A DNA stretch of 64,000 bases from Phyllosticta citribraziliensis (lineage: Eukaryota). Every line of letters starts with the position of its first letter. The first letter of the stretch is position 1. Shown here piece after piece: positions 48,768 through 54,633 of the stretch. The notes beneath the pieces were generated by a model, which made no database searches, was not told where the DNA came from, and worked only from the letters and a program-made list of their open reading frames with translations. Made by a program: the position numbers and the translations under genes. The stretch is taken from positions 372,001-436,000 of the forward strand of contig NW_027117353.1 in assembly GCF_038025025.1 (NCBI RefSeq), given 5' to 3'.

Positions 48768-50052
48768 GACGGGGGCGGGGGAGGGCGCGCAAGCCCTGTC
48801 ATATATGGCGAAGCGGTCGTGAGTCGGCGGTCTTGGGCGAAAAGCGGACAGGCATACGGCGGAGTCGCAGGCTTGCAGGAACGACGACTGGAGCGGGCGG
48901 CACGCAGCGGAGGCTGGTCGATAAGAAGGATGTCGGGCGTGAGGGGTCGGGAGGGGATGGAATTGTACGGGTTGGAGTTGAGTGGTAGAAGACGTGTCGG
49001 GGGCAAAGAAGAATAACGCCGCGCAAGAAGTCTGGGGGATTGCGGGGAGGAGTCGCGCGCAAGCCAATCAACCCCTGCGTGTTTGCTCGAGGCCTCCCGG
49101 GCTCTTTTCGTTTCAACAAGCCATCCAGAAGCTATCACTTACTTATTCGTCCCATCTCAGGCGGCACGATCAGCAGGCGTGGCATCATGGGCGGTCGTTA
49201 CACGGAGAATTGGTGCTGCTCGCTCGGCCTCAACACCGACCATGCTGCTACGGCCCTCTGAGTGTGCCCTGCGTCGCCGCCAGCACCCACTCTGCACCCC
49301 AGAGAGGGTCACGCGGGGAATGGTATGATGTTAGACCTGCGTGCCTGGAAACTTGCAAGCTGCCGGACGGGATACCCCAGGGCTGACTCGCACATCATGC
49401 ATGCATCCAAGAGCAAAAGCAACGCTCCCTAGGCTTTTGCTCTGGCTTTTCTCGGGCGTCACGTACGCCAGACACGCGACATGCAAGAGCTATTTTTTAG
49501 CTGACGGGTGGACATGCACTCGAGAAATGGCCTGACTAGCCGGCAATGGCGCTCAGCCATAATCTCAACCGTGGTACCCTCGTACCGCAATGTTGGACGA
49601 CAGAGAACTAGACCCCAGTGGCGCCCGCTCAACACCATTGAATTGTCAGCATAGAGGGCCTTTGCTGGACATTGAACTTCAGTCTTGACCTGGTGTCGTC
49701 TGATATTCCCAACATTCGGGTCTTCTTTTCCGGACGGCTGGCAGCGTCGTTGACTCGTACAATGCATCAAGTGCTGTGCTCGGAAACAGCCGGAGCATGT
49801 CTTTTGGCTGACATGACCTCGCTTCCGGATCGCGATTCTGGGGAAAGCTGGACCACGCAAAGAGACTCTGCCGGGGTGATCGACGGTAAGGTTGTGCGTG
49901 GGGAACGAGCTTGGGCTGCTTGGATACCTTGGCACTATGCGGAATGTGTTGGCTTCACTTCGAGAAGAATTCTTTGATTCGGCGCTCTGTCGTCAAATTT
50001 GTACAAGCGAAGGTGTTGAATGCTGTCAATCGGCCGTAAAAATGTTGAACGC

Positions 50053-52090
50053 TCACGAGAAGTCCTCTTCTTCTTGCAAAGCAAGGTACCGCTGCACCGT
50101 CTCCGTGGCCAGAAGCTTTTCCTTTTCTTCCTCGAGATCCCCGTACGACCGCTCCAGCAGATCTCTTTCCAGATCCCTGAACCTCATGGCGAGATTCCAG
50201 ACTCCTTGTCTTACCAACTCTCCGTCTTTATCTACACCCCTGACATCGTTCTCAGAGCTGTGCAAAACACGAAGCTGTGACTCAACTCTGTCTTGTATCA
50301 ATGCCACGGCCCGGAGCTGAAAGACTGGCCACAACAGATTGGCTTCGAGTAGCTCTTTGAGTTTGTGTGGCTCCTCGAGCTTCTCCTCTTTCCAAAAGAC
50401 TTGTAGCTCTCTGCCACCGTCGTTGGTCTGCAAGATTTGAAACTCCAGCCCGTCTTCTTCGTTGACAATTACAAGCCAAATGAAGTCGCTCATCCAGCCA
50501 GTGCCCTCGCTTGAGACATTGGGCTCCTCACTGTCAAAGATTTTGAAGCCTGGTGCCGCTTTGTTGATGTGCATCTTGGCAACCTTTAGTGGATCATCTT
50601 GGGGGATTTCCAGATCGAGGAATAGCTCCGTAGCCGAGTTCATGCTGTCCTCGATAAAACCATAGGAGAAGAGCATCTCACAAGCTCCTTTCTTGTCGCC
50701 GTAGCTAGAAAATGTTAGCATGGTTCGCGGACAGAATGTAAATGTCCGTACGTGATTGTAACCTCCTCTCCCTCGTTCACCGTCTTGCCCTCTCTCAAAA
50801 GGAGGACAGCATTTCCCTTTGAGTCCACTTCGTATAGAGCGGCCGTCTCATCTCCACTGGCGTGGTTGGCCATGTCAATCCCCGGGACCATGCTGTCTCC
50901 AATTCCTGGAAACTCGAGCGCACGGGATCGATACATGGCATCGACTTGGAGCCAGTCGTCAAAGGTGAGACCATAAGTGTCGTCGTACCACCAGTCATCA
51001 TTGCACCAGGCAATGCTCTCAGTCAACTTGTGAAGCTTCTCATACTCCTTGTTCAAGCTCTTCAACTTGGCTTCAACCGCTGGTTTGAGCGTCGTCCCAA
51101 TCAACAAGGTGCGTTCCTCCTCGGTCCAAAAGGTAGGGAGGAGCTCTTGAGGGAGAAATTTGACATATCTGGAAATGTCAGTACCTCTGAACATGGTCTG
51201 TTTGATCCCTCATACTCTGTCATTGGATTTTTGACGCCAATCTTGTTGTCTGGACGCGAGATCGAAGACTGATAGAGAAGAAAGACAAGAATGGAAATCC
51301 TGGCAGTCTGGAAACGTGAGCTTGAATGCTATCTGCAACCCCGCAAGACTATCTCAAAGCCCAAATAAATTTGCCGTCTGTTACGCGAGACGAAGTCAGA
51401 CGCCTGCCAGCGACTGGGACATGTTGACGTCGGATCAAGAATTAGGTGCCCCACCTATTCTGTGAGAAGACAATGGACTGCGTGGAATGAAAAGTTTGTG
51501 CTGTCCTCAACCTCTCAGTGTCCGACATCTCACACGACAACCGCCGTCTCAGCGGCAACATCTTCAGTGGGCACGATGAGATGGCAACACATACACCAAG
51601 CTGTTGCGTTGGGTCTTTTCTGCAAAGTTCGACGCTCTGGGATATGATATCGAATCGACAAGCTGCACTCTAACAAGACATGCGGGTCCTTGCAGCGCCG
51701 CGCCGAAAGACGTCTGATTCATCTCGCGTAACAAGGGCAGGATGGCAAGGCGATAGCCGCCCAGACGCATCTTCAACGACGATTGGTGAAGCTTACCATG
51801 CCAAAGTCGCCCAAAACCTCGAGCAGCTGGCGCAAGTGTTTATCCGACTTTGCGTGCAAGCGCACCCCCTCGAGAGAGAGGACAAGATCGCGCGGAATGG
51901 CCATGAGCGGGTCGTTGTTGTCTCCGAGCAAGTCCCGCTCGGCCACAACAGCGGAGCCTCGATGCTCGAGCCCAGGCAGAGGGCCAACAGACACGTTGTT
52001 GAAAGCCAGGCCGTTTAGGTCAGCCCATGGCTTCAGCGCGGTGATGGGGAGGGTGAGCCAGCCCTCTTGTCTGCCACGGCGGATCAACAT
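50053..52090 (-). CDS. SET-domain protein lysine methyltransferase (Rubisco-LSMT/Rkm-like class)
   Basis: Motifs 'WADLNG...GSAVVA', 'LPTFW', 'YRSRALE...MVPGIDMANHAS', 'GEEVTIT/YGDK' and 'MLFSYGF'. Intron 1 is 51308-51796, and two further introns are short. Confidence 0.88.
51371..51748 (-). other. Long-range inverted repeat / structured RNA element within intron 1 of the SET gene
   Basis: 51379-51405 (TGTTACGCGAGACGAAGTCAGACGCCT) is the reverse complement of 51708-51733 apart from two substitutions and a 1-nt indel. Both substitutions give G-U pairs in the minus-strand transcript. Confidence 0.8.
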
Positions 52091-52685
52091 GGCTGCTTGA
52101 CAGGAACCAAAGCAAGCGAGATTGCCTGATTGGGAAATGACCGGCCAGCGGTGAAAATTGAAAGGCGTGTCGGCGGTACAGCAGCGCGGTGGCACAGGCT
52201 GACACGACAGTAGAGAGGCGAAAGGTGGCACGAGCCAGAGGGACACGGGGCTGAGATGGGGACGAATGACGCGGGACGATGACGGTGATGGAGGTTGACT
52301 GGCGTAGCGACGGGGAAGTGTTGGCGGTTGTTGTGGAAAACAATGTCGGCGCCCGTGCACGGCATCTGCGGGGATCGGCGCATTTACCGCCGTAACGGGA
52401 GCTCTGGCCAGTGGCAATGCGCCGTCACGCCGCCGTGGCGCTCATAACAATTGACTAAGCGAGCGATTCTTGCCCGGGCAACCGCAAACCAGGCCATGCC
52501 CAATTCGGACGACGCCAAAACATTGGACTCCCACTCGCCATCGCTACAGCACCAGCTGCTCTCCACCACTATTTTACCACCTCACGCCCACCCACACGCG
52601 CTCCGCCGTCTTCTTCCGTCCCATCACCGCGCCGCCCCTTCCCCTCTGCCGCGATCCATCCGCCTGACCGCGCGCATCGCCCGCC

Positions 52686-54633
52686 ATGCCTTCGAACGCC
52701 TCAATTGAGGAGGATCATCGCAACGGCGCCCAGAGCATCGGCCAGGTTATCGAGTACATCCAGGACCGTCTGTACCTAGCTTCGTATACCCACCCGCCCA
52801 ACGCGCACACGCCGTTTCCCTACCCGGTGTCCAAGGAGCGCAAGTCTCCCAGCAAGCGCTCCTCGCGAGCCCAACAGAGCACCGCTGCCTCCAAGCCCAG
52901 CTCCCCTCCTCCCGTCTACTTTTCCGTCGACCGCCGCCTGCTCTACAATGCCTTCCACGCCGACTTTGGCCCACTCCACATAGGCCACCTCTACCGCTTC
53001 GCCGTGCTGCTCCACGAGGTGCTTGCGGCCCCCAAGAACGAAGACAGGCCCGTCGTATTCTGGTGCCATGCCGACTCGAGGAGTATGCAGCAACCCCGCT
53101 CCCCTAGCATCGTCACTGACCTTCTTAGGCCGCGCAAATGCCGCTTGCTTGCTTGCTTGCTACATGGTGCTCATCCAAAACTGGCCGCCACACCTTGCCC
53201 TTGCGCCAATTGCCCAGATGGATCCGCCGTGCATGCCATTCAGAGATGCCGGATACAGCCAGGCCGACTACATTATCAACATTCAGGACGTCGTCTACGG
53301 CGTGTGGAAAGCGAAGGAGGAAGGTATCTGCAGCCTGCGGGATTTCAGCCTCGAGGAGTATGAAAAGTTTGAGCGCGTGGACATGGGCGACTTCAACTGG
53401 GTGTCGCCCAACTTTCTCGCCTTTGCATCGCCCCAGCACCTTCCAGCCAAGGTGATTCCCACCTCGGACCCGCTTTACGCCCAGGTGCCAAAGACGATTG
53501 CAGAACTTGAAAAGGCCGACATTCCCACTCCGTTCAAGAACGTCCTGGCGCACTTTTCGACGCGCAACATAGGGCTGGTTGTCCGCCTCAACTCGGAGCT
53601 CTACTCGCCAACATACTTTACGGCGCTGGGCATTCAGCACCTGGACATGATTTTTGATGACGGAACTTGCCCTCCTCTCAACCTTGTCCGCAACTTTGTC
53701 AACTTGGCCCACGAGATGATTACGGTGCGGAAGAAGGGCATCGCGGTGCACTGCAAGGCTGGCCTGGGGCGCACGGGATGTCTGATTGGTGCCTACCTGA
53801 TCTACAGGCATGGGTTCACTGCCAACGAAATCATTGCCTTTATGCGATTCATGAGGCCCGGAATGGTCGTTGGCCCTCAACAACACTGGCTCCATCTCAA
53901 CCAGGGCACTTTCAGGGAGTGGTGGTTCGAGGACAGTTGGAAGGAGAAGATGGCGCTTCAACCGGCGACGCCCACCAAGTCGTATAGACAGCGCTTGGCC
54001 AGCAACGGACAAACCTTTACGCCTCCCAACGGCAGCCAGAAGCGCGCGGCGCTTGGCGAAATCAATACCAACGATCACCGCGTAACGTCTGCATCCCTGG
54101 GAACCACAGTTCATGACGACAATCTCCCTGCGCCTACTCCTGGGCAGCCCCGCAAGACTAGCAAGATTTACGGGCCTGCAAGCCGTCACCAGTCGCCGTG
54201 TCGCGGGCATGAGAATGAGCCGTACATAATGCCAGACTCTGAAGTCATCAACGTGCGCCGCGCGTCTGCCGTCGAGCCTGAGTCGGACGAGGAATATCAG
54301 CTTCGCATGCTGGCCAAGCGTGCTGCCTCCCGCTCCCCCAACTCCAAGACCCCAACGAGCAACAGCAAGAGGCGAGCCGTTAGCTGCACGACAACCACCA
54401 TGTCCACGACGACTACGACGTGGAATGGAGGCGAGAGTGATGTTGAGAACCGCGTCGGAAAACCCAAGACGCCCTTGGGCAAAACTGGCAGCGGTGCTGG
54501 CGCAATCAGCGTCTCCAAGACCAGGGGAAGCCCCACCAGACGAAGCACTGATGGCAAGACGAGCGGCGTGAGGAAGACTAGCGGCAGGGTCGGGAGCGTG
54601 GGCAGCGCGAGCACAAGGGCCAAAAATGTCTGA
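52686..54633 (+). CDS. CDC14: Dual-specificity phosphatase Cdc14
   Basis: Motifs 'IEYIQDRLY', 'FHADFGPLHIGHLYRF', 'RANAACL', 'HCKAGLGRTG' and 'RFMRPGMVVGPQQHWL'. Intron 53083-53128. Confidence 0.96.

Follow-up and report, generated by a model that had tools for sequence, protein, structure and literature searches.

Why should a fungus with introns of about 50 nt carry one of 489 nt, and does the long inverted repeat inside that intron serve its splicing? The question arises from a 64,000-nt stretch of Phyllosticta citribraziliensis DNA (contig NW_027117353.1, positions 372,001 to 436,000), which we call the window and whose own coordinates are used throughout. On its minus strand, at 52090-50053, lies a four-exon gene for a SET-domain methyltransferase, whose first intron (51308..51796) is the element under study. 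A sequence-only reading of the window had described this intron as highly structured and had proposed that it acts as a splicing element, encodes a noncoding RNA (ncRNA) or responds to a ligand such as S-adenosylmethionine (SAM). We find one strong hairpin in a long intron that is spliced inefficiently, and neither a novel class of RNA nor a new mode of regulation; selection on the structure is not supported by the tests run. Probably, an ancient intron was enlarged in the Phyllosticta lineage and carries the relic of an inverted repeat. As a hairpin, this relic would passively shorten the path from donor to branch point while splicing stays inefficient.

The borders of intron 1 were established from RNA, as contigs of four public runs placed on 50000-52600. 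Run X1 contributes five contigs, all listed, and the depths quoted below are rough contig depths from that one run. An X1 joint at 51307|51797 places the ends exactly where they had been predicted, giving a phase-0 intron with a GTAAGC donor and a TTTCCAG acceptor. All three X1 joints read CT..AC on the plus strand and so GT..AG on the gene strand, and removal of intron 1 restores the frame as ...GDFGM|TARISILVFLL..., identical to the database protein P0004 and its homologues. Intron 1 is thus a real U2-type spliceosomal intron of the GT..AG kind, removed from RNA at exact ends.

Removal is incomplete. One X1 contig (51279-51826, depth 96.5) runs unspliced across the whole of intron 1 and into both flanking exons, compared with 160.3 for the contig spliced at this junction and 369-377 for the exons; by these rough depths from one run, about 26-38% of the RNA is unspliced at intron 1. 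The bins with the gene's two 47-nt introns have a depth of 169.8, wholly accounted for by the spliced contig, and no unspliced contig of either is found among the five. X1 is RNA without assembled DNA, as indicated by the spliced joints, the lack of unspliced 47-nt introns and a depth of 0 upstream of exon 1 at 52349-52522. Intron 1 is therefore the one poorly spliced intron of the gene. Unspliced RNA reads ...GDFGM-VSFTNRR-stop, with a stop after seven intron codons and a product of 105 residues. A further run, X11, covers 10 of 30 bins, with intron 1 outside them.

The long intron also touches the annotation of a congener. Among the models of Phyllosticta capitalensis, P0006 and P0008 have 484 aa, and the P0006 sequence has the same junction as here, while P0007 (526 aa) includes 62 residues translated from its long intron and skips part of exon 2. 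It seems that the length of the intron misled the annotation in P0007. A tblastn search of its extra residues against intron 1 of P. citribraziliensis gave no significant match (best E, 34-79). Knowledge of this intron is useful for gene-model curation, since the congener's alternative model reads into it.

The stem and the remainder of the fold

The sequence-only reading had closed the intron with a stem of 24 Watson-Crick pairs, two G-U pairs and one bulge, and this count is exact. The inverted repeat and the predicted fold agree on a core 5' arm at 51708..51734 and a core 3' arm at 51378..51405, both read on the minus strand, in which 51733-51708 pairs with 51405-51379. The core has 26 pairs, with G-U at U51721-G51391 and U51710-G51403 and a bulge at C51395. 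Its duplex energy is -42.8 kcal/mol on the sense strand versus -34.3 kcal/mol on the antisense, and its mean pair probability is 0.98 in a 701-nt pre-mRNA context. Extending the arms to 51701-51739 and 51372-51412, with small loops, brings the energy of 51739-51701 with 51412-51372 to -57.6 kcal/mol. The stem is not a product of chance, as its local inverted-repeat score of 39 was reached in 0/500 shuffles (14.2 +/- 2.2) and the longest long-range helix spans 33 bp, where none of 40 shuffles exceeded 18. Elsewhere in the window only one comparable inverted repeat outside low-complexity sequence was found (23 nt at 87%).

The position of this stem relative to the splice signals depends on the branch point. 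Fungal branch points follow the consensus CTRAY, close to the acceptor. We infer that intron 1 branches within CTCAC (51316..51320, minus strand; branch A at 51317, 9 nt before the acceptor G), because the acceptor actually used adjoins this motif. CTCAC is non-consensus, and it is the only motif at the spacing where the two 47-nt introns have CTGAC and CTAAC. Measured to this putative branch A, the stem begins 62 nt past the donor, stops 60 nt short of 51317 and would loop out 357 of the 489 nt. Consensus-type branch motifs occur twice in the intron, as CTGAC at 51399-51395, inside the 3' arm with its last letter as the bulged C, and as CTAAT at 51445. The loop also holds, at 51594-51589, a GTATGT that would make a perfect internal donor. 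No alternative splice joint is seen among the five X1 contigs. The stem could mask CTGAC as a decoy branch site, and a masked decoy is the most that this hidden motif would be.

These positions suggest how the hairpin may bear on splicing. One inverted repeat, with arms of about 27-33 nt some 300 nt apart, would give the pre-mRNA a very stable 26-bp stem, if this forms in vivo as predicted, and would reduce a donor-to-branch path of about 480 nt to the stem and some 122 nt besides. The shorter path probably makes a long insert tolerable in a fungus whose introns normally have about 50 nt. That removal is slow or incomplete despite the stem would probably be due to the length of the intron together with its non-consensus CTCAC.

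The label of a highly structured intron is not borne out beyond the stem. The loop interior (51406..51707, minus strand, 302 nt) folds at chance level, with a z score of -0.49 and 30/100 shuffles equally stable, and the flanks of the repeat core are complementary no better than chance (267/500 and 379/500 shuffles reach the observed score). For the whole intron, z is -3.06, or -2.07 with another 40 shuffles, and -1.73 on the opposite strand; because interior and repeat flanks are at chance, this value is carried by the single stem. In the predicted fold, the stem is the sole non-random structure of intron 1, and the proposed folding check gave a divided answer, firm for the stem and at chance for the interior. 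Most of the inner helices that had been listed do occur in the minimum free energy (MFE) or centroid fold, namely GAUGUCGGA/UCCGACGUC, the GAAUAGGUG hairpin, GCUGCA/UGCAGC and the CCGC hairpin, while AUGUUG/CAACAU is not present in the MFE fold. All of them are probably chance pairings.

The fold of the interior bears directly on the two proposals that concern an RNA of its own. A search of 51000-52100 against Rfam 15 at E <= 10 gave no match within intron 1 and no riboswitch or small nucleolar RNA (snoRNA) family, in keeping with the earlier statement that no known RNA family was recognized here. Outside the intron, sub-threshold matches were returned for mir-6827 in exon 1 (17.8 of 80 bits) and for Ocean-VII at 51196-51218 (14.1 of 53.5 bits). 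A scan for the C-box motif (RTGATGA or TGATG) found none in intron 1.

We consider it very unlikely that intron 1 encodes an ncRNA, whether an intronic snoRNA or a precursor of small RNAs made from the 26-bp stem. In principle, Dicer could act on a stem as long as 26 bp, and intron sequence is plentiful in RNA (depth 96.5), but the contig that contains it crosses both exon borders, as expected of unspliced pre-mRNA. Fungal introns often house snoRNAs, as stated in the excerpted text of PMC3596301, but the interior is neither structured nor conserved in the congener, and neither Rfam nor the C-box scan pointed to one. The snoRNA candidate was rejected for lack of an Rfam match and of a C box. 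A riboswitch that senses SAM or another ligand and so controls splicing is hardly credible: its sole support is an analogy with the cofactor of the enzyme, and no Rfam 15 riboswitch family matched over 51000-52100. With the interior folding at chance and not conserved, the riboswitch candidate was likewise rejected.

Relatives and the origin of the repeat

A further possibility is a mobile intron of recent gain, in which case intron 1 would belong with the introner-like elements or with the proliferating introns called "symmetrical". The position of the intron bears on this, and it was followed through 80 metagenome loci (L001-L080) that encode homologues of the host protein. The region is covered in 69 of them and uncovered in 11. 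An intron lies at the exact phase-0 site in 63 loci; one has none, four probably have none and one is unresolved. The 63 introns represent 45 distinct sequences of 51-353 nt (median 93), with 17 of the 45 in the range of 140-353 nt, so that intron 1, at 489 nt, is the longest seen at this site. No similarity to intron 1 is detected among the 45 (best match, 11 nt; E, 0.62). By this comparison, the phase-0 site after residue 98 is ancient and its intron often longish, and intron 1 was not newly gained, as the site is occupied in 63 of 69 covered loci from distant fungi.

The position thus argues against a recently gained, proliferating intron, a reading to which we give almost no weight. Intron 1 does resemble such elements in being longer than regular introns and in having a stable predicted structure, as reported for Dothideomycetes in the excerpts of PMC3609843 and PMC4457414, and inverted repeats are also carried by the (stw)introns of Hypoxylaceae in the part of PMC8469720 available, but the repeat here is internal rather than terminal and no similar intron occurs in the window. 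The ancient position was the ground on which the introner candidate was rejected.

The orthologous introns also show that a long-range stem is not a general need at this site: among the 21 others of at least 110 nt, only one has a long-range helix that fewer than 5% of shuffles equal. Their frequent length is not explained by a shared known snoRNA either, since Rfam gave 0 matches at gathering score on 13 homologous loci with long orthologous introns. In three related loci (L024, L027 and L040) the site introns reach 340-353 nt. Six other loci (L061:3292-3494, L063:3289-3500, L064:1996-2208, L072:3127-3298, L077:3289-3468 and L080:1433-1609) have orthologous introns of 172-213 nt that share the conserved block CAG-TG.AA..TGATGGG.CATCA-GTA(T/A). 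The block consists of a small hairpin, UGAUG/CAUCA, between an acceptor-like CAG and a donor-like GUAUG/GUAAG, and it has no Rfam match. Possible readings are a micro-exon, the border of a nested intron or an element that controls splicing.

Closer relatives allow the intron itself to be compared through listed differences, which cover 40 of the 267 rows for substitutions and 12 of the 35 for indels. Organism B (run X3), with contigs 95-99% alike, has the intron at the same length and shows 43 differences over the 914 nt of 50772-51685. In run X9, two versions span 51315-51800: one has 39 differences plus 8 gaps in 486 positions, and the second alignable version has a 62-nt stretch replaced by 68 nt. 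A more distant X9 version has 430 unalignable letters in place of 474, an intron of 445 nt, and exon-containing flanks about 84% alike. Over 50000-52600, X9 holds at least three versions of the locus, 99% to under 90% alike (26 records), which marks it, on these contigs, as a mixture of related strains or species and not one genome. Most of the listed differences between species fall in the loop interior. As read from these contigs, the interior evolves fast and is not conserved in the congener.

Mapped on the MFE fold, the 23 listed intron differences fall at 10 unpaired and 13 paired positions, and of the latter nine break a pair, four are tolerated as wobble pairs and none is compensatory. 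The two arms differ from each other by two substitutions and one indel in 27 positions (7-11%). This divergence is of the same order as that between the species' introns (43/914 for X3; 39 plus 8 gaps in 486 for X9), so that neutral decay since a single event would suffice. The long intron is not a recent insertion, being common to congeners. The G-U pairs had been offered as a sign of selection at the level of RNA; with only two transitions, each having an even chance of falling that way, we put this outcome at P = 0.25.

We return to an ancient intron that was enlarged and carries the relic of an inverted repeat. The repeat most likely arose from one event, either a MITE-like (miniature inverted-repeat transposable element) or foldback insertion or a local inverted duplication, which we place in the ancestor of the close relatives sampled, with drift since then. 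Several observations count against this account. On the side of constraint, the 52 paired positions of the core are free of all 23 listed differences, one of which falls at the bulged C; about 2.5 core differences are expected from length, and among the listed differences this gives P of about 0.07, which hints weakly at constraint. On the transcribed strand the two arm differences both appear as G-U, as selection on RNA would give, and the stem is placed almost symmetrically between donor and branch point. On the side of origin, the intron of the distant relative is also long (445 nt), indicating that the length predates the alignable clade. No target-site duplication surrounds the repeat, whose flanks, ...CTGCCCT| and |GACGGCA..., share no direct repeat; such a duplication could have decayed since. 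No second copy of the repeat occurs in the window, and scanning the metagenome contigs for the exact pattern of the arm gave 0 matches. With neither a target-site duplication nor a second copy, an insertion origin is unproven.

The same observations would acquire another meaning if the stem were a selected splicing element, either a zipper-type enhancer for a 489-nt intron with a weak branch site or a retention switch that tunes the level of the methyltransferase. Its symmetric placement, with 62 nt to the donor and 60 nt to branch A, the core pairs free of listed substitutions in the contigs of three relatives, the two G-U differences on the sense strand and the RNA left unspliced at intron 1 only (about 26-38%) all accord with this reading, for which the zipper stems of yeast RPS17B and RPL7B provide precedents in the excerpts of PMC12350175 and PMC12311795. 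We nevertheless regard it as rather unlikely. No compensatory change is present among the 23 listed differences, the divergence of the arms is compatible with neutral drift, and in other fungi most of the long orthologous introns have no significant long-range helix. At 122 nt in total, the linker is outside the range of 42-85 nt for yeast zippers, and no alternative, mutually exclusive structure, as a switch might use, was identified. The earlier proposal of an element joining donor and branch point is thus upheld in its geometry and not in its function, as no test showed selection. A stronger version, in which the stem has been retained or domesticated as a zipper that splices the 489-nt intron and hides the CTGAC decoy, and together with the weak CTCAC sets a high retention that doses the methyltransferase throughout the genus, seems to us improbable.

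We think it similarly improbable that the 357 nt bounded by the stem belong to a dispersed MITE family, whose terminal inverted repeats would give the hairpin only incidentally. The repeats do have sharp limits, beyond which the match drops to chance, and they enclose a short noncoding segment whose interior is unstructured and fast evolving; typical MITE dimensions fit its 357 nt. A dispersed family is at odds with the single copy in 64 kb and the 0 exact arm matches in metagenome contigs, and no target-site duplication is visible. Organism B and the two alignable X9 contigs also have the segment at this site, with no insertion polymorphism. A literature search on transposable elements of Phyllosticta yielded nothing relevant among the matches listed.

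The host gene

The gene on the minus strand at 52090-50053 encodes, over exons that sum to 484 codons, translations equal to P0004 (484 aa), named in its sources as an uncharacterized or SET domain-containing protein of P. citribraziliensis. Exon 1 (51797..52090; RNA contig 51797-52318) starts with the ATG at 52090 and has 98 codons that end in ...GDFGM, identical to P0004 residues 1-98. Exon 2 (51216..51307, 92 nt) and exon 3 (50752..51168) are delimited by RNA joints and protein match, and exon 4 (50053..50704), which includes the stop codon, has 100% identity to P0004. Intron 2 (51169..51215; joint 51168|51216) and intron 3 (50705..50751; joint 50704|50752), each of 47 nt, are fully removed in X1.

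A profile built from 28 homologues (A1) matches the solved structures of Rubisco LSMT (1mlv, 7.4e-14) and SETD6 (3qxy, 1.2e-4). The SET methyltransferase label of the sequence-only reading is reasonable, and the product would be an LSMT/SETD6-like enzyme. Local Pfam and NCBIfam scans of the protein assigned no family (Pfam threshold, E <= 0.01); the homologue table gives a precomputed Pfam family, PF27829, for P0004.

Upstream, the apparent transcript start is near 52318, where the X1 contig of exon 1 stops in sequencing-adapter letters, which gives a 5' untranslated region (52091..52318) of about 228 nt. Past the gap in coverage, RNA cover resumes from 52569 on, with a strongly expressed neighbouring transcript (depth 1730). 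A divergent neighbour on the plus strand (52668-54633) has long open frames with the motif HCKAGLGRTG, which we take to be the signature of Cys-based protein phosphatases of the CDC14 or dual-specificity type.

Comparison with known systems

Intron 1 shares features with several kinds of element and is, in our judgment, an ordinary kind of feature and mildly interesting. Like MITEs found in introns, it has inverted repeats of about 27-33 nt around a noncoding segment of about 357 nt without structure of its own; unlike them, it lacks a target-site duplication, has no further copy in the window or the metagenome contigs and shows no presence/absence polymorphism in the relatives sampled. If an insertion did occur, it would be a natural example of an inverted repeat tolerated inside an intron. 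The introner-like elements of Dothideomycetes, the same class, are also longer than regular introns and have stable predicted structures; as the excerpts of PMC3609843 and PMC4457414 describe them, they are multi-copy and create new intron positions, whereas intron 1 is at an ancient shared position and has no copies in the window. The internally symmetrical (stw)introns of Hypoxylaceae likewise have long inverted repeats, which can give double-stranded intron RNA, and no flanking duplications. According to the excerpted text of PMC8469720, their repeats are terminal and of 45-55 nt, in introns that are sequence-related and proliferating, while the repeat here is shorter, lies inside the intron and, as far as seen, has a single copy. 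The available portion of PMC11162794 presents structures in introns that hide branch sites; CTGAC within the 3' arm, which the stem would cover, resembles these, but the acceptor in use implies CTCAC as the branch.

The nearest likeness is to the zipper stems of Saccharomyces cerevisiae introns in RPS17B and RPL7B, for which the excerpts of Rangan et al. 2025 (PMC12350175) define a total linker of 42-85 nt and report sequences that are poorly conserved, diverge quickly and are sporadic among orthologous introns. As in yeast, the stem would pair a donor-proximal segment with one that precedes the branch point, loop out the middle of a 400-500-nt intron and shorten the distance from donor to branch. 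Applied to intron 1, the definition in these excerpts covers the stem itself (26 bp, pair probability 0.98) and its placement (62 + 60 nt, with the putative branch A), and the linker lies outside it (122 nt for the core, about 111 nt extended). Outer predicted helices that fall within the linker range are no better than chance, and a change at 51745 in X3 and X9 breaks one of them. The stem also differs from those of yeast, as far as the excerpts describe them, in being much longer and an almost perfect inverted repeat, and its host is a filamentous Dothideomycete with introns of about 50 nt, where the stem is known from prediction. By the definition in the portion of PMC12350175 available, the predicted stem is zipper-like in geometry and not a zipper stem. 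If it does aid splicing, the zipper principle would extend from budding yeasts to a filamentous ascomycete with introns of about 50 nt.

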